A DNA stretch of 64,000 bases from Dehalococcoidia bacterium (GTDB lineage Bacteria > Chloroflexota > Dehalococcoidia > Lucifugimonadales > VXLM01), in the NCBI GenBank assembly GCA_965232435.1, contig CBDDPU010000004.1:240974-304973 (forward strand), given 5' to 3'. Made by a program: the position numbers and the translations under genes. Position 1 is the first letter of the stretch. Each line of letters begins with the position of its first letter. Shown here piece by piece: positions 13,306 through 57,390 of the stretch. The notes beneath the pieces were generated by a model. That model saw only the letters and a program-made list of their open reading frames with translations. It ran no database searches and was not told the DNA's origin.

Positions 13306-13965
13306 TTGCCATCCGGGACGTCGTTGAAAGAGAAAACGACATCGCACGCCCCCTACAACGAGGAGAGCGCTCTCTTGGATCTCGGGTATTCTTACGTGGC
13401 CGGCATCGACGAGGTCGGAAGAGGTCCGCTCGCGGGGCCCGTCGTGGCCGGTGTCGTGATTCTTCCTCCACACCCGAGCGGAGAATGGCTGCGCGGAATT
13501 CGAGACAGCAAGGCTATGACTGCCGCACAGCGCGAACGCTCATATGATGCGATAGTAGAAAACGCCTGGGCCGCCGCGACAGGGCAAGCATCCTCATCGG
13601 AAATCGACGACAACGGCATCGTGGCCGCGACAGCCCTCGCGATGACACGAGCACTGGACTCGCTCGCGCTCATGCCGCAGTACCTGCTCATCGATGCCTT
13701 CCCTCTTCCCAACGTCGATATACCCCAAAAGGCCATCGTCAAGGGCGATGCGCTGAGTCTCTCTATAGCCGCGGCTTCGGTCGTGGCAAAAGTCACCCGA
13801 GACCGCATCATGAAAAAAATCGACCTCGTCTATCCCGAGTACGGTTTTGCCAGTCACAAGGGCTACGGCAGCGCCGAGCACATCCGCATGATCGAAACCC
13901 TCGGGCCATGTCCCGCCCACCGATACTCGTTCTCGCCGATCCGAAATTCCGGCCACACGAGATGA
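13306..13965 (+). CDS. rnhB: Ribonuclease HII
   Basis: GIDEVGRGPLAGPVV active-site motif and DSK..SHKGYGSAEH. The TTG start at 13306 is uncertain. Confidence 0.9.
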   Translation: MPSGTSLKEKTTSHAPYNEESALLDLGYSYVAGIDEVGRGPLAGPVVAGVVILPPHPSGEWLRGIRDSKAMTAAQRERSYDAIVENAWAAATGQASSSEIDDNGIVAATALAMTRALDSLALMPQYLLIDAFPLPNVDIPQKAIVKGDALSLSIAAASVVAKVTRDRIMKKIDLVYPEYGFASHKGYGSAEHIRMIETLGPCPAHRYSFSPIRNSGHTR

Positions 13966-14333
13966 CGACGCGACGACAGCGCACAGGAGAACTGGGCGAA
14001 GAGATCGCAGCCCGTCGGCTGCGCCAGGCCGGATACCGCATCCTGGAACGGAGATACCGCACGCCCTACGGGGAAATCGATCTCGTATGCGAACGCCGCG
14101 GAATGCTTTCATTTGTCGAAGTCAGGACGCGGCGAACAGCCGGCTTCGGATCGCCCGAAGAATCGATCACACCCAACAAAGCCGCCCACATGACCGAATC
14201 CGCCCAGCACTACATACAATCAGCTGGCATGGAGCACAGAGACTGGCGCATCGATCTCGTCGCCGTTGAGCTTGGGCAAAACGGCAAACTGCTGCGCGTC
14301 GAAATTATCGAAAACGCCATAGAAATTCACTAA
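13962..14333 (+). CDS. yraN: YraN-family (UPF0102) endonuclease-like protein
   Basis: GELGEEIAARRLRQAGYRILERRYRTPYGEIDLV..FVEVRTRR is the classic YraN pattern. The ATG at 13962 overlaps the rnhB stop (ATGA), so the longer ORF from 13908 is rejected. Confidence 0.8.
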   Translation: MTTRRQRTGELGEEIAARRLRQAGYRILERRYRTPYGEIDLVCERRGMLSFVEVRTRRTAGFGSPEESITPNKAAHMTESAQHYIQSAGMEHRDWRIDLVAVELGQNGKLLRVEIIENAIEIH

Positions 14334-14376
14334 AGAAACAAGCCTATCGCCCGGAGAGTTGCTGAATACCCCCTCA

Positions 14377-14473
14377 CTCGTCATTCCACCGCCTTCACCC
14401 ATTACACCAACAACCCACAATCATAACTCCGACAACCTGCAATCATCAGTCCAGCTCTCTCAATCGTCACTCC
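14377..14473. repeat. Five phased copies (about 21-bp period) of a degenerate motif (C)AATCNTCANTCC
   Basis: Copies are ctcgtcattcc (14377), cccattacacc (14398), caatcataactcc (14418), caatcatcagtcc (14440) and caatcgtcactcc (14461). They lie at the GC-rich edge of a 460-bp AT-rich intergenic region. Confidence 0.4.
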
Positions 14474-14796
14474 GGCAAAAGCCAAAGTCAAGAAAAGAAG
14501 ATAAGAACATTCTCCATAACCGCCTATAAAGAAATGTAACTGTGATCAATTGGCGAATTAGCTATCTTGACATTCTCAAACATTCTTCTGTCATCGCTGC
14601 TACGTATCTCATTACCACAAAGGAACTATTTACATAACTGAAAAATTTACAGTGCAACCTTGCAAACTTCTCATTACCCAAATGATATTGTTATATACCT
14701 GTCATTACGACAAAGTAGACCATTTGATCCATCATCATTACAAACGTACCTTACTCGTAACTGCCAACACTCCCTAATCGAGCATAGGAGAATTTC

Positions 14797-15534
14797 ATGA
14801 CAATACCACTCGAACGGATCAAGTCCATGCCGGCCTTCTCGCCCTACTTTCCCATGCCGCCGGCGCGATACCGCGGCGTCAAGTCCCAAATCGTCTACTT
14901 CCGCGCCAAACCCTCCGCCATCGACCGTGTGCTCCCGGAATGCTTCGAGCTTCCAAACGATCCCGTCTGCATGGCGATCGGATTATCCGTGCCCTGGTCC
15001 GCAAACTACGGAGCGTTCGACGAGAGCGCGCTGTCAGTCGCCTGCGCGTTTGAGGGCGAGAACGGCTGGTTCACCCCGGTCGCGTTTCTGAACTCCAAAT
15101 CAAGCATTCCCGCCGGACGAGAAATATACGGCACGCCCAAAGTCTGGGCCGACTTTGAAATCGGATTCGCCGAACGGGTCATGTACACCGATACCCTGGT
15201 CGCAGGCACAGCAATAATGAGCATCCGCTCGACCATGCACCGCGAAGCCGCCCCCGATGACATGCCCCCCTCGAAACGCTCGTGGCGGCTCAAGGCGATC
15301 CCGCGCGTCGACGGAAACGGCCTGGACGTGCTGCAGCTCGTCGACGGCGCAGACGTAGCTTCCGACAGGGAAATACACGTTTGCCGAGCAGGAGACGGTG
15401 TCGTACAGTTCACACCCTCGCCCGTGTACGACCTCTCCGGCTTCACCCCCATAGAGTACCTGGGCGCTTATTATATAGAGTCCGACTTTACCGAAAACTG
15501 GGGGCGAATCGTCCGAGACTTCCTCAAAGACTGA
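14797..15534 (+). CDS. Acetoacetate decarboxylase (ADC) family protein
   Basis: The N-terminal MPAFSPYFPMPPARYRG...VYFRAKPSAIDRVLPECFE matches the ADC-family pattern, and the 245-aa size is typical. Confidence 0.7.
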   Translation: MTIPLERIKSMPAFSPYFPMPPARYRGVKSQIVYFRAKPSAIDRVLPECFELPNDPVCMAIGLSVPWSANYGAFDESALSVACAFEGENGWFTPVAFLNSKSSIPAGREIYGTPKVWADFEIGFAERVMYTDTLVAGTAIMSIRSTMHREAAPDDMPPSKRSWRLKAIPRVDGNGLDVLQLVDGADVASDREIHVCRAGDGVVQFTPSPVYDLSGFTPIEYLGAYYIESDFTENWGRIVRDFLKD

Positions 15535-26136: not shown

Positions 26137-26472
26137 ATGCCTTCAGATTCTGATTTAGCCCTAAGGACGCTACACCTTACAAAGCGTTACTGCAAGCTAA
26201 CGGCTGTCCATGATGTTAGTTTAGAGGTTTACAGAAGCGAGATTTTCGGCCTTAGGGCCTTAGAGGGTGTCTAAAAACAACTCCGTTCGCCCTGAGCCTG
26301 CCGAAGGGTGAAAGCCTGGTTCATGGTTCGACAAGATCACCATAAACGGTTCCCGCTGACTTTTTAGACACCCTCTTATAGGCCCGAACGGACCAGGAAA
26401 GACTACGATTATCGGAATGGTCGTTGGCCTTATAAGACCAACTTCTTCAGGAGACGAGACATCCAGTTCTAG
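26137..26472 (+). pseudogene. Remnant of an ABC-transporter ATP-binding gene, interrupted in the Walker A codons and truncated after about 70 codons
   Basis: It reads MPSDSDLALRTLHLTKRYCKLTAVHDVSLEVYRSEIFGL, then the insertion, then (I)GPNGPGKTTIIGMVVGLIRPTS and a stop at 26470. The Q-loop, signature and Walker B regions are absent. Confidence 0.65.
26255..26378. mobile_element. MITE-like insertion (about 124 bp) inside the ABC remnant
   Basis: Inverted termini GAGGGTGTCTAAAAA (26263-26277) and TTTTTAGACACCCTC (26361-26375) enclose a family-2 repeat core. Removing about 124 nt restores IFGLIGPNGPGKTT. The exact ends are ambiguous because the target GGCCTTATAGGCC is itself palindromic. Confidence 0.6.
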
Positions 26473-27215
26473 ATTTCGATATGGACGCCGTACGAGCGCC
26501 ATATCTTCTCTATGCGCTTCTTGATCTGGGCAAGCAATCTTCGTTCCGCCGAATATATGCAGAATTGGTTGCGTTCACCCTCACTAGGGTCCTCGATAAT
26601 ATAGACGCTTTCAGTTCCCCAGTCCTGGACAACTTTGGCCTGCTCTTTGGTACGAGATCTAGTACGTGTTCGGGCCAAGCTCCGGGCCTCATCCAAGATC
26701 ATATCGAAGTGTGGCGGCTTCGGTACAAGTATGCGAAAGTCAACGAACGGCCAGATTGCCGTATGTCCATTCCAAAGCTTCATTACACTTTGTAAATGGG
26801 CCCTAGCGTACAGTGGTATCACAAACTCATCACCAGTGCGCTTTCCGCCGATGGCGATCAGTGCCAAACCATAGGTATCTAGGAAGTGTTCAACCTCTTG
26901 CACGTCCTCATTGAAGATAGCGCTACCAGGTGTGAAATACACAAATCCTTTTCCAGCCACGCAACTCAGTAACGCCCACATCATTTCCTCGACTGCTGGA
27001 CATACATCCCCTCCAGCCTGAGAAGTAATCATTTCTCCAAAGAACTTGCGCTCTGTAATGAAAGAGTCTCGCACGAAACTCCCTCGTATGATTATCGCGT
27101 CCCTCTTTCGAAGGTCGCCGTCTCGAACAGAATCGGTTTCTCTGATTAGTGAAATGCGATCAGGTACATAACGCCCTTCGTCAGGAATGGTGTTCATTTC
27201 AGCAATATCAGTCAT
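26469..27215 (-). CDS. Hypothetical cytosolic protein (248 aa) with no family recognised
   Basis: It is the longest ORF in a visibly AT-richer segment, where long spurious ORFs are unlikely. It has no TM segments. The central block GFVYFTPGS...ALIAIGGKRTGDEF is only vaguely Rossmann/SLOG-like. I could not assign a family. Confidence 0.5.
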   Translation of the reverse strand: MTDIAEMNTIPDEGRYVPDRISLIRETDSVRDGDLRKRDAIIIRGSFVRDSFITERKFFGEMITSQAGGDVCPAVEEMMWALLSCVAGKGFVYFTPGSAIFNEDVQEVEHFLDTYGLALIAIGGKRTGDEFVIPLYARAHLQSVMKLWNGHTAIWPFVDFRILVPKPPHFDMILDEARSLARTRTRSRTKEQAKVVQDWGTESVYIIEDPSEGERNQFCIYSAERRLLAQIKKRIEKIWRSYGVHIEI

Positions 27216-27290
27216 GATGTCCCAATATCAAGGCAAGTGTATCACCACGGAAGTAGACGTACTCGGTGGTCTTTCGCCTTAGCGTTTTTG

Positions 27291-27869
27291 TTAGCTTTGG
27301 TGGTCACCTGAATATGAGTCCCATGATTGTAATGATTTCGGGTGCAGGCCGATCGACTTCGACCACCCTTTTTGTTTCTGTTTCATACCTACTTGAAAGT
27401 AAGTCTGGCCCTTTTTAAGCCCACTCACAGACACCTGGATACCTTTAGCAGTGTTATATGTGCTCTTCGCCGTATTTATGGTTTTCTTTGCAGTAGCACT
27501 AACAACACGTGGAGTAGACTTCACTGCCTTGTATGCGGCTTTCGCAACCCGTGAAACGTGGGAACACATGGCAACACAGGTTCTAACCACCGCACAAGGG
27601 ATGCAGGCCTTCCTGATCTCAATTGACGAGACTCCAAAATGGGAGGACGAGTTGTAGCTCGTAGGGGATGTTGATTCATAGCCATAAGCATGAGCAACAT
27701 CGAAATTCTCTGAAACGTGAGACACTAAGGATGCCACTGCTAGGGTGAGTATCGGCATAACCAAGGAAAACATGATGACATTACGTATACGGAACAAACT
27801 AATGTACGCATGAGTTGATTGGGTTACTGGTTCGTTATGATTTGCAATCATAACTTCTCCCATTGGCAT
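27291..27869 (-). CDS. Hypothetical membrane-anchored or secreted protein (up to 192 aa), with a Cys cluster and a Lys-rich tail
   Basis: Hydrophobic segment MFSLVMPILTLAVASLVSHV with a possible AHA cleavage site, a CIPCAVVRTCVAMC cluster, and a basic repetitive tail (AKKTINTAKSTYNTAKG). The start codon is uncertain. It is co-oriented 75 bp upstream of the 248-aa ORF. Confidence 0.45.
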   Translation of the reverse strand: MPMGEVMIANHNEPVTQSTHAYISLFRIRNVIMFSLVMPILTLAVASLVSHVSENFDVAHAYGYESTSPTSYNSSSHFGVSSIEIRKACIPCAVVRTCVAMCSHVSRVAKAAYKAVKSTPRVVSATAKKTINTAKSTYNTAKGIQVSVSGLKKGQTYFQVGMKQKQKGWSKSIGLHPKSLQSWDSYSGDHQS

Positions 27870-28565: not shown

Positions 28566-28793
28566 ATGGTTGCGTCAAGAGAGAAGTTTTCCAGCCAAGC
28601 TTCGCCGGACCTATTGGCCGCGATGCGAGAAGTTGCCCAGAATGAGGGGCGCCACTTTCAAGCTGTGCTGGAAGACGCCATGCGCGAGTACCTTGACAAC
28701 AAAAAACGACAGAACGTCCGTCCCGAGGTGATGGCCCATTTCCATGCCAGCCTCGAGAGAAACCAGCGCCTCTATGAGCTGCTCTCGCAGTGA
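28566..28793 (+). CDS. Antitoxin of the Doc module (ribbon-helix-helix-like, 75 aa)
   Basis: A small ORF immediately upstream of doc, overlapping it (GTGA). The segment SPDLLAAMREVAQNEGRHFQAVLEDAMREYL looks like an RHH/CopG DNA-binding fold. Confidence 0.6.
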   Translation: MVASREKFSSQASPDLLAAMREVAQNEGRHFQAVLEDAMREYLDNKKRQNVRPEVMAHFHASLERNQRLYELLSQ

Positions 28794-29176
28794 GTCGTGA
28801 ATTCCTCTCTGTTGAAGAGGTTGTCGCCATTCATGACGCCCTGATCCATGAGACCGGCGGCATGATGGGCTTACGTGAAGTGGGCGCGTTAGCCTCCGCC
28901 GTTATGCGTCCACAGATCGGCTACTATGACGGCATCATTGAGGAGGCTGCCGCCCTCCTGGAAAGCCTCACCGTGAATCATCCCTTCGTGGACGGCAACA
29001 AGCGTACCGCCTTCGCGGTCACCGACGCCTTCCTCCGCATGAACGGCAGCCTCATCGATTGTGACAGCGAAGAGACCTACCGATTCTTCATGCGGCTCTT
29101 CAAGAACAACGCATTCCGATTCGCTGAGCTTCGTGAGTGGCTGGAGAACCACGTCAGGCCACTGCCGACGCCCTGA
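28790..29176 (+). CDS. doc: Doc (death-on-curing) / Fic-family toxin
   Basis: Fic/Doc motif HPFVDGNKRTAF. The 128-aa size and the N-terminal LSVEEVVAIHD...GG..G.R are typical of Doc. Confidence 0.85.
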   Translation: MSREFLSVEEVVAIHDALIHETGGMMGLREVGALASAVMRPQIGYYDGIIEEAAALLESLTVNHPFVDGNKRTAFAVTDAFLRMNGSLIDCDSEETYRFFMRLFKNNAFRFAELREWLENHVRPLPTP

Positions 29177-31956: not shown

Positions 31957-32295
31957 CTACGCGCAGCCTGTAGCAATTGCGACCGCCGGGCAGACTTCGA
32001 CCATCTTCGATTCGCTTATTGACCCTATGTAGCGACGCAACTGTTGCTTCTGAACGGACTGGATATGGTCGCAGTTGATCGGCGAGTCGTTCTTGAGGCC
32101 CTCGTCCACACCGACAATGACCTCGCTTGGCAGACCGCGAATCGTGGAGTTTATCGGCGCCACAATCGCGGCGCTGAGCAGCGGGAGCACTTCCGAGCGC
32201 GTCAACACCACAACCGGCCGACGCTTGTCGGGCGGGTTGAACCGGTAGAGCCAGACCTCTCCCCGGCGCGGCCCAGTGTCTAATCCTCCAACCAT
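31957..32295 (-). CDS. mazF: MazF/PemK-family toxin (endoribonuclease)
   Basis: RRGEVWLYRFNPPDKRRPVVVLT...VAPINST...SPINCDHIQSV is the typical PemK/MazF pattern. 112 aa and apparently intact. Confidence 0.8.
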   Translation of the reverse strand: MVGGLDTGPRRGEVWLYRFNPPDKRRPVVVLTRSEVLPLLSAAIVAPINSTIRGLPSEVIVGVDEGLKNDSPINCDHIQSVQKQQLRRYIGSISESKMVEVCPAVAIATGCA

Positions 32296-32360
32296 ACGGC
32301 TTGGTCAGCCCAGCCCTTAAGTTCGTCGTCTATGGCAGGGTCGCTCCGATATCCTGATCG
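32280..32360 (-). pseudogene. C-terminal remnant of an RHH antitoxin (toxin-binding tail), overlapping the mazF start
   Basis: The minus-strand frame reads RSGYRSDPAIDDELKGWADQAVWLED-stop, preceded by an in-frame TAG. The acidic, Trp-containing tail and 16-nt overlap with the toxin start are typical of antitoxin 3' ends. Confidence 0.45.
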
Positions 32361-32613
32361 CTAACATCTTGCGCAGCATGGCTATTAGCTTCCATGAGAT
32401 AAGCCCCAATATGGTTCGTATATGCGCCGCGCAATTTCCGTCACACGAAAACCCATAGCCATTAGGGTATCTAGTAGCATTCTAAACTCTACGGACTGGG
32501 GAAATGTCCCTAACATTTGCACTTCGTTTTTGTCATCCATTGAAAGCGCTTCTTTGGCTTCTAACTACGAAAACGCCCGACACTAGTGGAACGCCGGGCA
32601 TCAATGCAAAATA

Positions 32614-32964
32614 CTACAAATTGTTTCTGTAATTTGGCCGTTTGCGATAGGCCTGCTGTAGTTGCAACCGTAGGTTCTTTGCCGTGTTGGATTCTATTGC
32701 AGCCTGAAAATCAACAACTGCCTCATCAAGGCGTTCAATCCATTCAACAATCGCAATGCTCACATCTTCAATATCCGAAAAGTACTCCATTAGATCATCG
32801 TAAAAGTCCCATATTTCTTCTATTGTGGTACATGTAAGATCTAAAACCTCATGCGGATCATTGGAAGCATCATTAACATTCTTTCCAATACTCTCAATCA
32901 TTTGCATGTACTTATTGTGTAGCTTGATGTTATTTGGCATTATATCTACTTTCCTAGCGTTCAA
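32614..32964 (-). CDS. Hypothetical acidic helical protein (116 aa) in strongly AT-rich DNA
   Basis: It is the only sizeable ORF in the AT-rich block of about 32361-33030. It is very acidic (DDLMEYFSDIEDVSIAIVEWIERLDEAVVDF). No family recognised. Confidence 0.45.
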   Translation of the reverse strand: MNARKVDIMPNNIKLHNKYMQMIESIGKNVNDASNDPHEVLDLTCTTIEEIWDFYDDLMEYFSDIEDVSIAIVEWIERLDEAVVDFQAAIESNTAKNLRLQLQQAYRKRPNYRNNL

Positions 32965-32972
32965 TTACCGCA

Positions 32973-33155
32973 TTAAGTGTATTTACAATTTCTTGCTGTG
33001 TACAATCCTCTGTATCGTACCACAACAGTAGTGACTCTTTGCCAATAACCTACCGCCTCCTGCAGCACTGCGGAACGACCTCGCTCACGGACGGCGGGAT
33101 GCCGGTCGAACCTCTCCAAAATCGACTGGTCGAACTCGACGCGGATGGTCTTCAT
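32973..33155 (-). CDS. Ribbon-helix-helix (CopG-like) antitoxin N-terminal domain with a foreign C-terminus
   Basis: MKTIRVEFDQSILERFDRHPAVRERGRSAVLQEAVGYW is a canonical RHH pattern. The last 20 or so codons run into AT-rich sequence of different composition. Confidence 0.55.
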   Translation of the reverse strand: MKTIRVEFDQSILERFDRHPAVRERGRSAVLQEAVGYWQRVTTVVVRYRGLYTARNCKYT

Positions 33156-33260
33156 GCGCCAACACTACCACACCGGAAACACCCCCAGCATATCCGACCC
33201 AATCGCTCGACGGCTCATCCACAACCGCACTCACCCAAACCGGACGCCAACGCGATGCCC

Positions 33261-34337
33261 CTACCCGCTCCCATCGAGATACGCCTTCACGATATTGATC
33301 ACGAGGGCCACGTCCTCCCCCGCGGCGAGCAGCGGAGACCTCGGCGTCCTTCCGTTCACGATGCAGTCATGAAAATGGCGCAGTTCCCGGCGGAATGGAC
33401 TCTCCCAGTCCAAGGCCGGCTCCTTCGCAATCGTCGCCCCGTTTGGATCGATCTCGTGGATCCTCACCCGCGCCACCTCACGCGAAAAGCCCGTCGGGTA
33501 CGACACGATAACCCGCTTCCGGCTTCCGTACACCTCAAGCGTCTCGTAGAAATCCCACAGATCGGGCAGATCGATCCACGACGCCACACAGCGAAAACCG
33601 TGCGTATATTCCAACGTCGTCGATATAGCCCCGCCATCCTGCCATATCTCCGCACTCACAACCCTGACCGGCGGCCCGAACAGATCGCGCAGCCCGTACA
33701 GATCATGAATCATGCTCCCCGCAATCGTGCCGAACGCGCGGACGGCCTCAGGCGGCGCGTCACCTATCGCCTGGCGAACTGCCACGCGACGGGCCTCAAC
33801 CGCCCTTTCTCTCACTTCTGCCGGTATGTCGGAAAATGACCTCGTCCTAAACTGGCCAACGTGCAGGTCGTTATCCGGGTGCAAATGATTCACCTGCACG
33901 AACCGAATATCGGACATCCCCTCGATCTCCCGTTTGGCCGTTTCGTATGCCGGCTCATACAGCTTCATATAGCCCGCCTGCGCCACCGTGCCCGAACGAC
34001 GCGCCGCCTCTTCGATCTCAGCGAACTCCTCCTTCGAGTAGCAAACCGGCTTCTCGACAAATACGTGCTTCCCCGCCTCAAGCGAAGCAACCACAGCCTC
34101 CGTCTTCGGATCGTAGTGGCAGAGCAGCACGGCATCGACATCGGCCTCCAGCATAGCCCGATAGTCGGTGAATCCGCGCGGCACGTGAAACAGCCTCGAC
34201 GCATACTCGACCGCCGACGGCGACGCGTCGCAAACGGCCACAACCTCGAACTCCTCCGCCAACTCCGTCAAAAAAGGCAAGTGGTGAATCTGGGCAATCG
34301 CCCCGCACCCAACAACGCCTATACGAACTCGCTCCAT
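33261..34337 (-). CDS. Gfo/Idh/MocA-family oxidoreductase
   Basis: The N-terminal Rossmann segment RIGVVGCGAIAQIHHLP and the EKP motif (VFVEKPV). Confidence 0.85.
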   Translation of the reverse strand: MERVRIGVVGCGAIAQIHHLPFLTELAEEFEVVAVCDASPSAVEYASRLFHVPRGFTDYRAMLEADVDAVLLCHYDPKTEAVVASLEAGKHVFVEKPVCYSKEEFAEIEEAARRSGTVAQAGYMKLYEPAYETAKREIEGMSDIRFVQVNHLHPDNDLHVGQFRTRSFSDIPAEVRERAVEARRVAVRQAIGDAPPEAVRAFGTIAGSMIHDLYGLRDLFGPPVRVVSAEIWQDGGAISTTLEYTHGFRCVASWIDLPDLWDFYETLEVYGSRKRVIVSYPTGFSREVARVRIHEIDPNGATIAKEPALDWESPFRRELRHFHDCIVNGRTPRSPLLAAGEDVALVINIVKAYLDGSG

Positions 34338-55980: not shown

Positions 55981-57390
55981 ATGAACGCACATGACGTCGC
56001 ATACCTGCCCGTACGCCGGTTAGCCGAACTCGTGCGCGAGAGGCAAGTCTCGCCCGTCGAGTTGGCGGAAGTGTTCCTTGAACGGCTGGAGCGTATCGGC
56101 CCGCGATACAACGCTCTCGTCACCCTCATGCCCGACCGCGCCAGGGAAGAGGCCGAGCGAGCCGAGCGAGAACTTGCGGCCGGCAAATACCGAGGTCCGC
56201 TGCACGGCATACCGTATGGTCTCAAGGACCTCTTCGCGGCCGTCGGCGCTCCGACTTCGTGGGGCGCGACGCCGTTCAAAAACCAAGTCTTCCGCAATGA
56301 TTCGACCGTCGCCCGAAAGCTCGAAGAAGCTGGAGCGGTGCTGCTCGGAAAACTTGCCCTAGTCGAAATCGCCGGCGGCATACGTTATAAGCAGCCAAAC
56401 GCCACCTTCACCGGGCCCGGCATCAATCCATGGGGCGGGACGACCTGGGCGGGTGGTTCGTCCAGCGGTTCCGGCTCCGCCGTCAGCGCAGGGCTTGCCC
56501 CTTTCGCGATCGGTTCAGAAACTTGGGGATCGATCATCACGCCCGCATCAAACTGCGGCATAGCCGGTCTCAGACCGACCTACGGCCTCGTCAGCCGGGC
56601 GGGCGCGATGCCTCTCTCGTGGACGCTCGACAAGCCGGGCCCCATGTGCCTAACCGCGGACGACTGCGGTCTCGTGGTCGAGGCCATCGCCGGCCCTGAT
56701 CCAAACGACCTCGCCGCCAGCCATCGCCCCTTCTCCGACTCACCCACTCGAGGCGACCGCCGATTCAAACTTGGCGTGCCCGTCGGAGCGACTGAGGGAG
56801 TCGAACCCACAGTAAAGAAGAATTTCGAGTCCGCCTTATCCACCCTGGAACAAATCGCCGACATTGATGAAGTCGAATTGCCGGACTATCCGTACTGGGC
56901 CGTGATTACCGCGATATTCATGGGCGAGTCCGCCACCATATACGCCGAGTTCACCAAAAGTGGAAAATCGGCAGAATTGACCGCGCCGGAAGACCGCTAT
57001 GGCATCTACGCTCGCAGCGCCTCGCTCGCCACCGATTACCTTCGCGCCATGCGAATCCGCAAGAAGATCGCTCGCGAGGTGGATCAAATCATGTCCCGCT
57101 ATGACGCTCTCGCAGGTCCTGGCCGCACCGGCGTCGCCATTCCCCTCGACCTCCCCTTTGTGAAAGGCTTCAAAGAGCGGGCTAGTGAAGTAATGGGCAC
57201 GCTGGGCAACCTAATCGGTCTTCCGGCCGTTACCGTGCCGTCCGGCTTCTCGGAGGACGATCTGCCAACGTCCATTCAGTTCATGGGCAGACCATACGAT
57301 GACAACATCATCCTCTCAGTCGCCGACGCATATCAAGCAATGACGGAATGGCACGAACGCCATCCGCCCGACCCGGAACCGCATTTATAA
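55981..57390 (+). CDS. Amidase-signature (AS) family amidase (GatA-like)
   Basis: AS signature GGSSSGSGSAVSAGLAPFAIGSETWGSI and the catalytic Lys context YGLKD. Confidence 0.9.
   Translation: MNAHDVAYLPVRRLAELVRERQVSPVELAEVFLERLERIGPRYNALVTLMPDRAREEAERAERELAAGKYRGPLHGIPYGLKDLFAAVGAPTSWGATPFKNQVFRNDSTVARKLEEAGAVLLGKLALVEIAGGIRYKQPNATFTGPGINPWGGTTWAGGSSSGSGSAVSAGLAPFAIGSETWGSIITPASNCGIAGLRPTYGLVSRAGAMPLSWTLDKPGPMCLTADDCGLVVEAIAGPDPNDLAASHRPFSDSPTRGDRRFKLGVPVGATEGVEPTVKKNFESALSTLEQIADIDEVELPDYPYWAVITAIFMGESATIYAEFTKSGKSAELTAPEDRYGIYARSASLATDYLRAMRIRKKIAREVDQIMSRYDALAGPGRTGVAIPLDLPFVKGFKERASEVMGTLGNLIGLPAVTVPSGFSEDDLPTSIQFMGRPYDDNIILSVADAYQAMTEWHERHPPDPEPHL

Follow-up and report, generated by a model that had tools for sequence, protein, structure and literature searches.

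In the 64,000-nt stretch of Dehalococcoidia DNA analysed here (the window), positions 31957-33155 were found to carry a chromosomal mazEF toxin-antitoxin (TA) module, encoding a ribbon-helix-helix (RHH) antitoxin and an endoribonuclease of the MazF/PemK type, which is most probably in an advanced state of decay, i.e., dead or dying as a TA module. The antitoxin gene is interrupted by a foreign, AT-rich insert and contains two further lesions, and the toxin gene carries an asparagine codon at the position of the catalytic threonine. An earlier reading of this DNA made from the letters alone (the sequence-only reading) had described an intact mazF whose RHH antitoxin gene was split by a roughly 0.7-kb insertion, and every element that it listed was located in the sequence. 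The comparison with orthologues presented below bears out the split; "intact" holds for the open reading frame (ORF) of mazF, but not for its catalytic site.

A scan of the MazF protein against 185,579 species-representative genomes gave ten loci (L001-L010). Four of them (L001-L004) were from Dehalococcoidia metagenome-assembled genomes (MAGs) and showed MazF identities of 77-86% to the window. Their flanks were collinear with the window on both sides of the mazEF locus, which is preceded by a Gfo/Idh/MocA oxidoreductase gene and followed by yceD; the ORFs beyond yceD we take to be those for ribosomal protein L32 (rpmF) and FabD (fabD). In blastn comparisons, window positions 34952-33049 corresponded to L001 1027-2889 and window positions 32407-28958 to L001 2888-6336. 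In L001-L009 the antitoxin was encoded by one unbroken ORF whose end reached or overlapped the mazF start; its length was 77 aa in L001-L006, as exemplified by the intact antitoxin MKTIRVEFDEVMLERFDRHPAVRERGRSVVLQEAVGAYLTEVDNDDVAERYRAGYRSAPPIDDELEGWADQAVWPED.

A MAFFT DNA alignment of the window with the four Dehalococcoidia orthologues showed a single clean gap of about 643 columns. Host DNA was found up to GTAGG (33049) and again from GGGGCTTATCTC (32407 onward), the insertion point being after the second base of antitoxin codon 36. The junction is thus at 33048/33049 and not at about 33030, where the RHH frame had been thought to break; its end after some 20 unrelated codons was found much as described, 24 codons being followed by a stop at 32973. 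Windowed G+C content (GC) dropped to 0.34-0.45 across 32400-33050, compared to 0.59 for the whole window; the insert measures 641-643 bp and has a GC of 0.41. Aligned with the uninterrupted 77-aa gene at the syntenic place, the RHH N-terminal part and the acidic, tryptophan-bearing tail of the window are read as the two ends of one antitoxin gene, and a chance resemblance is rejected. From the same alignments the split is judged to be real and to be the derived state, because orthologues with a native 60-aa RHH protein, the same C-terminus and the spacing of the window were not found. Relatives closer than 86% identity, which were sought to date the events, were not found in the genome or metagenome collections.

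The part of the antitoxin gene beyond the insert was shown to be damaged as well. After the insert, AYLMEANSHA reads in the original antitoxin frame; compared with each of the four orthologues, one nucleotide is then missing near 32373/32374, and a TAC to TAG nonsense codon follows at 32363-32361, the conserved AERYRAGY being changed to ARC-stop-RSGY. In tblastn, residues 52-77 of the L001 antitoxin matched 32360-32283 with 81% identity, so that the C-terminal remnant does align to an antitoxin. Its frame (32360-32280) overlaps the mazF ATG by 16 nt. The tail frame just 5′ of mazF and the in-frame TAG before it were present as reported in the sequence-only reading; the spacer between the two antitoxin parts is not all insert, however, as some 45 nt of the native antitoxin gene, in damaged form, separate the insert from the remnant. 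There is no ATG, GTG or TTG between the TAG and the last five codons, and the toxin-binding tail can therefore not be made. A continuous ORF joining a DNA-binding domain to a toxin-binding tail, by which a MazE is recognized, is thus lacking in the window because of the insert, the 1-nt deletion and the TAG.

The window fragment scored 13.1 bits against RHH_1 (PF01402) and the intact L001 antitoxin 13.7 bits, both under the cut-off of 20.5 bits, so that the family assignment of the fragment rests on orthology. The L006 orthologue scored 28.5 bits (E=1.3e-6, profile positions 2-39), and mapping on its alignment suggests that the insert removes about the last five RHH_1 profile positions. The 60-aa product that is now encoded might bind DNA at most. 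Of the earlier suggestion that the truncated RHH still works, only this part may stand; neutralization of the toxin is not expected, because the toxin-binding tail cannot be translated. The start of the insert reads ..RYRGLY, and a tblastn hint that it was a copy of the native ..RYRAGY was followed up and rejected, since DNA local alignment gave scores like those of shuffles (p=0.47-0.89). Paralogous MazE-like sequences were not found within the 64-kb window.

The toxin belongs clearly to the MazF/PemK family, with 60.9 bits against Pfam PemK_toxin PF02452 (cut-off 23.1 bits; E=1.5e-16; profile positions 1-107 of 109). Its closest solved structure was Mycobacterium tuberculosis MazF3 (5uct/5cca, E=2.5e-13), and MazF7, MazF9 and MazF4 in the PDB matched as well. 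The equivalents of the catalytic Asp23 and Arg26 are retained, R26 corresponding to R13 of 5uct and R25 of Bacillus subtilis MazF, and Arg was found at this position in 117 of the 119 closest MazF homologue clusters (61-86% identity), which were used for all column counts. The aligned counterparts of N49 of the window are T36 in M. tuberculosis MazF3 (5uct), T48 in B. subtilis MazF and presumably T52 in Escherichia coli MazF. In the alignment with L001-L010, Asn replaces Thr of the otherwise invariant A-P-[IV]-T motif in the window only. Among the homologue clusters, column 49 contained T (116), M (2) or S (1), but never N, and the catalytic Thr/Ser that characterizes the family is thus absent from the window protein.

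Checking mazF against orthologues for inactivating substitutions, as had been proposed, revealed three more changes that, like T49N, are private to the window: T42A (T in 119/119 clusters), A72P (A in 113 and V in 6) and R103P (R in 111/119). At least four unique changes at columns conserved to at least 80% were shown by only 3 of 120 sequences, the window being one of these. The other two (P0020, 129 aa; P0024, 125 aa) are longer than usual, with unique substitutions confined to the C-terminus, a pattern which looks like that of frameshifted or otherwise degenerate copies.

The Arg/Thr pair has been described as the key catalytic residues of MazF, the Thr being proposed to stabilize the transition state, and Arg/Thr mutants lost ribonuclease activity or toxicity (PMC7354611, PMC8634880, PMC11394972). 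Judged by which residues have changed, and not by how many, the toxin of the window is predicted to be inactive or attenuated, and this is the functional reading we favour. The sequence-only reading had considered a toxin that is either unguarded or inactive; it is the inactive or attenuated version that is supported, by T49N together with the three changes at near-invariant columns.

Natural parallels for the loss of a catalytic residue were found among the homologues. The catalytic Thr is replaced by Met in P0036 (L015) and P0111 (L016/L017), and the catalytic Arg by Cys in P0026 (L018) and by Trp in P0011 (L021). In all four, the place of the antitoxin upstream is taken by an intact gene of 77-103 aa. 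An RHH_1 match was recorded for three of these four upstream genes, and the neighbour of P0011 had no Pfam match on record; the P0011 locus also has the Gfo/Idh/MocA oxidoreductase gene upstream. This occurrence of changed toxins next to intact upstream genes indicates that toxin-first decay takes place in the MazF family. Toxin-first pseudogenization of addiction modules is generally described for chromosomal type II systems. By analogy, we infer that the earliest change in the window was T49N, alone or together with the prolines, and that the antitoxin lesions came after; such a path avoids self-poisoning. The reverse order may also apply, the insertion then being first and mazF being silenced by polarity.

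The ends of the insert and its possible donor were analysed further. The first and last hexamers of the insert are both TATTGG (33047-33042 and 32411-32406) in direct orientation, which defines a unit of 636 nt. In simulations, such a terminal repeat arose by chance with a probability of about 0.004, and no mechanism considered accounts for it. The junction duplication consists of GG only (2 nt), which is under the criterion of at least 3 nt for a target-site duplication. Terminal inverted repeats were not found at the insert ends, nor were IS200/IS605-type subterminal hairpins in single-stranded DNA folds of both ends and both strands (z from -0.48 to +1.25 compared to shuffles). The ORFs of the insert gave no family match (all hits in Pfam, NCBIfam and PADLOC stayed below threshold), and no transposase or endonuclease gene was detected. 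In Rfam, no family was found at E<=10 in 32100-33300 apart from noise (snoRNA and miRNA models, 16-18 bits), and none reached the gathering threshold window-wide.

Other copies of the block, for which a search had been suggested, were not found: blastn against the window and the ten related loci gave no hit besides the block itself, and a distant-mode comparison with 50,697 phage and 72,556 plasmid records gave no match, which argues against contamination with a common spike-in or vector. On the basis of the missing inverted repeats, the GG-only duplication, the lack of a transposase and the lack of a further copy in the window, the related loci and the phage and plasmid collections, an insertion sequence (IS) or miniature inverted-repeat transposable element (MITE) was rejected as the origin of the insert.

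Illegitimate, microhomology-mediated integration is known from horizontal DNA uptake. The insert resembles products of this process in its 2-nt GG microhomology, in the absence of inverted repeats or a longer duplication and in its foreign, unameliorated composition, and differs from them in the terminal TATTGG direct repeat, which is not accounted for. Because of the 2-nt junction homology and the lack of any mobility signature, we infer that illegitimate capture of a foreign DNA fragment is the simplest mechanism.

The acidic helical 116-aa ORF reported within the insert was confirmed at 32614-32964, with an isoelectric point of 4.4 and a predicted all-helical structure. The GC at its first, second and third codon positions was 0.50/0.26/0.41, a coding-like pattern, and AGGA is present 11 nt upstream of its ATG (32940). 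ORFs of such length occurred in about 3-5% of shuffles (2.65% of dinucleotide shuffles of the insert for at least 116 aa). The 108-aa protein starting at this ATG matched only itself (P0001) in a search of 5.8 billion clusters, and likewise when phmmer was run over all 1.84 billion representatives, and protein-guided scans of viral and metagenome contigs for relatives were empty. Two weak PHROG matches (E=0.003), both to families without a known function, were given no weight. A single-sequence AlphaFold2 model showed four helices at low confidence (predicted local distance difference test score, 64), and its Foldseek comparison with the PDB returned generic helical bundles only (E>0.7). The composition and length of this ORF suggest, on modest evidence, that it may be a real foreign gene. 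For a second ORF of 51 aa, neither a family nor a homologue was found, and it probably represents a gene fragment or no gene at all; a helix-turn-helix in its GFRVTEIARRI stretch was considered and rejected as unsupported in a sequence lacking family and homologues.

The insert may also affect the expression of mazF. The hairpin at 32572-32602 had a folding energy of -17.7 kcal/mol in RNAfold for a 61-nt context; the consensus terminator scan skipped it because its loop exceeds 8 nt. From this fold it is predicted to act as a terminator with a polar effect on mazF. No Shine-Dalgarno sequence was found within 35 nt upstream of the mazF ATG, which makes it probable that mazF depended on translational coupling to the antitoxin, a coupling that is now lost. 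Any residual MazF is thus probably poorly expressed, as judged from these sequence features.

Taken together, the following course of decay is proposed. The native operon would have been located between the Gfo/Idh/MocA oxidoreductase gene and yceD-rpmF-fabD, with a 77-aa antitoxin combining an N-terminal RHH DNA-binding domain and an acidic, Trp-containing toxin-binding tail, the last 16 nt of its gene overlapping the mazF start. Asn would then have replaced the catalytic Thr of the toxin, and T42A, A72P and R103P would have been added at near-invariant positions. The antitoxin, by then dispensable, would have been broken three times, by the insert of 641-643 bp after codon 36, the 1-nt deletion and the TAC to TAG change. 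The insert itself would be a captured fragment joined by GG microhomology, carrying the orphan ORF and the terminator-like hairpin, and by abolishing the translational coupling needed by mazF it would keep residual MazF low.

Several observations weigh against a module that is fully dead, or against parts of this course. The ratio of non-synonymous to synonymous substitution rates (dN/dS) of mazF was 0.13-0.17 between the window and its orthologues, compared to 0.10-0.14 among the orthologues. The window was an outgroup to L001-L004, and its branch was long in the flanking genes also: in yceD and the oxidoreductase gene, 7-11% of amino acids were private changes of the window. The number of private substitutions in mazF is therefore, as a raw count, not excessive. 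Gene-wide relaxed selection on mazF was accordingly rejected, as neither dN/dS nor the private-substitution rate was raised given this long branch. The lack of gene-wide relaxed constraint implies that any relaxation is recent and that most of the branch was under purifying selection; a recent decay would also fit the unameliorated composition of the insert. Besides, all 112 codons of mazF still form an open frame, and M. tuberculosis MazF7 tolerates Ser at the catalytic Thr position (PMC7354611). The effect of Thr to Asn is predicted from such comparisons, and the window MazF may have residual activity. The toxin-first order of events is suggested by analogy. If only long reads were assembled, sequencing errors could account for the single-base lesions, though not for the 643-bp insert.

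These points bear most directly on the possibility that MazF is still an active toxin, either silenced by the insert or neutralized by a non-cognate antitoxin elsewhere in the 3.07-Mb genome. The open ORF, the retained Asp23 and Arg26 equivalents, the low whole-gene dN/dS and the tolerance of Ser in MazF7 are in line with activity, and the hairpin after the orphan ORF and the missing Shine-Dalgarno sequence would lower expression in the silenced case. Set against these, Asn at the catalytic Thr is absent from the 119 closest homologue clusters, two prolines and T42A are found at near-invariant columns, and a paralogous MazE-like sequence that could act in trans was not found in the 64-kb window; we consider an active toxin unlikely. 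The idea that the inserted acidic protein has taken over as a new antitoxin was not supported. A functional foreign gene, whether for a MazF antitoxin or immunity protein or for another selected function, would be consistent with an ORF longer than in 95-97% of dinucleotide shuffles, its GC1>GC3>GC2 order, the AGGA and the terminator-like hairpin on its two sides, an acidic, aromatic-rich composition as in MazE tails and the two weak PHROG matches. The lack of any homologue or related locus leaves no evidence of conservation or of association with a toxin, ORFs of similar length occur in about 3-5% of shuffles, the low-confidence model matched generic helix bundles, and a toxin without its catalytic Thr needs no antitoxin, all of which makes such a gene highly improbable.

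Just as improbable is that the block arose artificially during sequencing or assembly, from a chimeric read or a contaminant, and that the antitoxin gene is intact in reality. The composition shift is abrupt and the single known copy comes from one metagenome-assembled contig, but the junctions are clean to the base with a 2-nt microhomology, phage records (including the usual spike-in genomes) and plasmids gave no match, and the independent frameshift, nonsense and catalytic lesions in the operon fit a real decay. Even less probable is a discrete mobile or self-splicing element (a MITE or IS derivative, an IS200/IS605-type element or a group I/II intron) whose excision or splicing may restore the antitoxin. 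It would profit from the TATTGG at both ends, and its borders permit a reading in which U is the last base of the 5′ flank and G that of the insert, as in group I introns. These hints are countered by the absence of Rfam introns or ribozymes at E<=10, of inverted repeats, of subterminal hairpins beyond shuffles, of a transposase or endonuclease gene and of a second copy in the window, related loci and phage and plasmid collections. A self-splicing intron was rejected also because exact removal of the insert would still leave the frameshift and the TAG. Counted together, the readings in which the insert itself is functional, either through a possibly phage-derived four-helix protein that neutralizes MazF or counters defence, or as a longer-than-unit copy of a circular element of about 636 nt of an undescribed kind, have a very small chance of being true. 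A mazEF module in advanced decay thus remains our preferred explanation, and the coordinates of its parts are given in Table 1.

Table 1. Features of the decayed mazEF locus in window coordinates.
Feature	Position	Strand	Basis and remarks
mazF/PemK-family toxin ORF, 112 aa	31957..32295	-	Pfam PF02452; open, carries T49N, T42A, A72P, R103P
mazF codon 49, AAC (Asn), catalytic Thr position	32149..32151	-	Orthologues all ACG/ACC (Thr)
Native 5′ part of RHH antitoxin gene, codons 1-36, MKTIRVEFDQSILERFDRHPAVRERGRSAVLQEAVG	33049..33155	-	Codon-for-codon alignment with 77-aa antitoxins of L001-L004
Current RHH ORF, 60 aa, 36 native plus 24 insert-encoded residues (YWQRVTTVVVRYRGLYTARNCKYT)	32973..33155	-	ORF list, frames
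AT-rich foreign insert of 643 bp (641 bp if the duplicated GG is not counted), GC 0.41	32406..33048	-	MAFFT alignment and blastn breakpoints
Orphan acidic, predicted helical ORF within insert, 116 aa (TTG start) or 108 aa (ATG start, 32940)	32614..32964	-	ORF list; self-match only
G+C-rich hairpin followed by UUUUCG, just past orphan ORF, intrinsic-terminator-like	32572..32602	-	RNAfold
51-aa ORF in 3′ part of insert, crosses right junction and stops in host DNA	32385..32540	-	ORF list; no family, no homologue
Native 3′ part of antitoxin gene, now untranslatable	32280..32405	-	Alignment with orthologues; tblastn
Toxin-binding tail RSGYRSDPAIDDELKGWADQAVWLED	32360-32283, stop 32282-32280	-	Frame analysis; in-frame TAG 32363-32361 just before

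Other features were observed in the window outside the mazEF locus. At 28566-29176 on the plus strand, 3 kb from mazF, a 75-aa ORF with an RHH-like N-terminus and no Pfam match runs into the start of the ORF for a Fic/Doc-family protein of 128 aa (PF02661, E=7e-16, motif HPFVDGNKRTAF), and this TA-like pair appears intact. Beside it, a region of lower GC (26469-27869, GC 0.44-0.48) contains on its minus strand two ORFs (248 and 192 aa) for which Pfam gave no match, and this region may likewise have been acquired. AT richness within the window is highest at 14300-14900 (GC 0.36-0.43), a patch located between the plus-strand ORFs 13908-14333 and 14797-15534 in which no long ORF, no Rfam or tRNA match and no similarity to the mazE insert were found. 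The sole tRNA of the window was tRNA-Ser(CGA) at 56785-56859 on the minus strand.

The module shares with M. tuberculosis MazEF3 (MazF-mt6, Rv1102c; 5uct/5cca) and the PF02452 family the MazF fold and the layout of the D-K-x-R and A-P-I-T motifs, and its orthologues also share with MazEF3/PF02452 systems an upstream RHH antitoxin that overlaps the toxin start and ends in an acidic, Trp-bearing tail. Unlike MazEF3, the window has an antitoxin split by 643 bp and affected by a frameshift and a nonsense codon, and a toxin with Asn at the catalytic Thr and with prolines at two conserved positions. The locus is therefore best filed as a degenerate remnant of a module from the MazEF3-like branch of a known family, with no new mechanism. 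It resembles other degenerate chromosomal TA loci in combining a probably toxin-inactivating change with the loss of a dispensable antitoxin, of which the four homologues with changed catalytic sites are the expected earlier stage; it differs from them in that the disrupting DNA is an orphan AT-rich fragment and neither an IS element nor a simple deletion.

These results are a warning to annotators, who would record an "intact MazF" at this locus together with an RHH "antitoxin" of 60 aa. The finding would be of greater importance if the orphan ORF neutralized MazF or the insert were mobile, neither of which is supported here. The locus further provides an example of unameliorated orphan DNA in a Dehalococcoidia chromosome in the absence of a recognizable mobile element. 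On the proposed order of events, it would give a base-resolved snapshot of the death of a chromosomal TA module, in which the active site of the toxin is hit and the antitoxin is then lost through insertion, frameshift and nonsense mutation.

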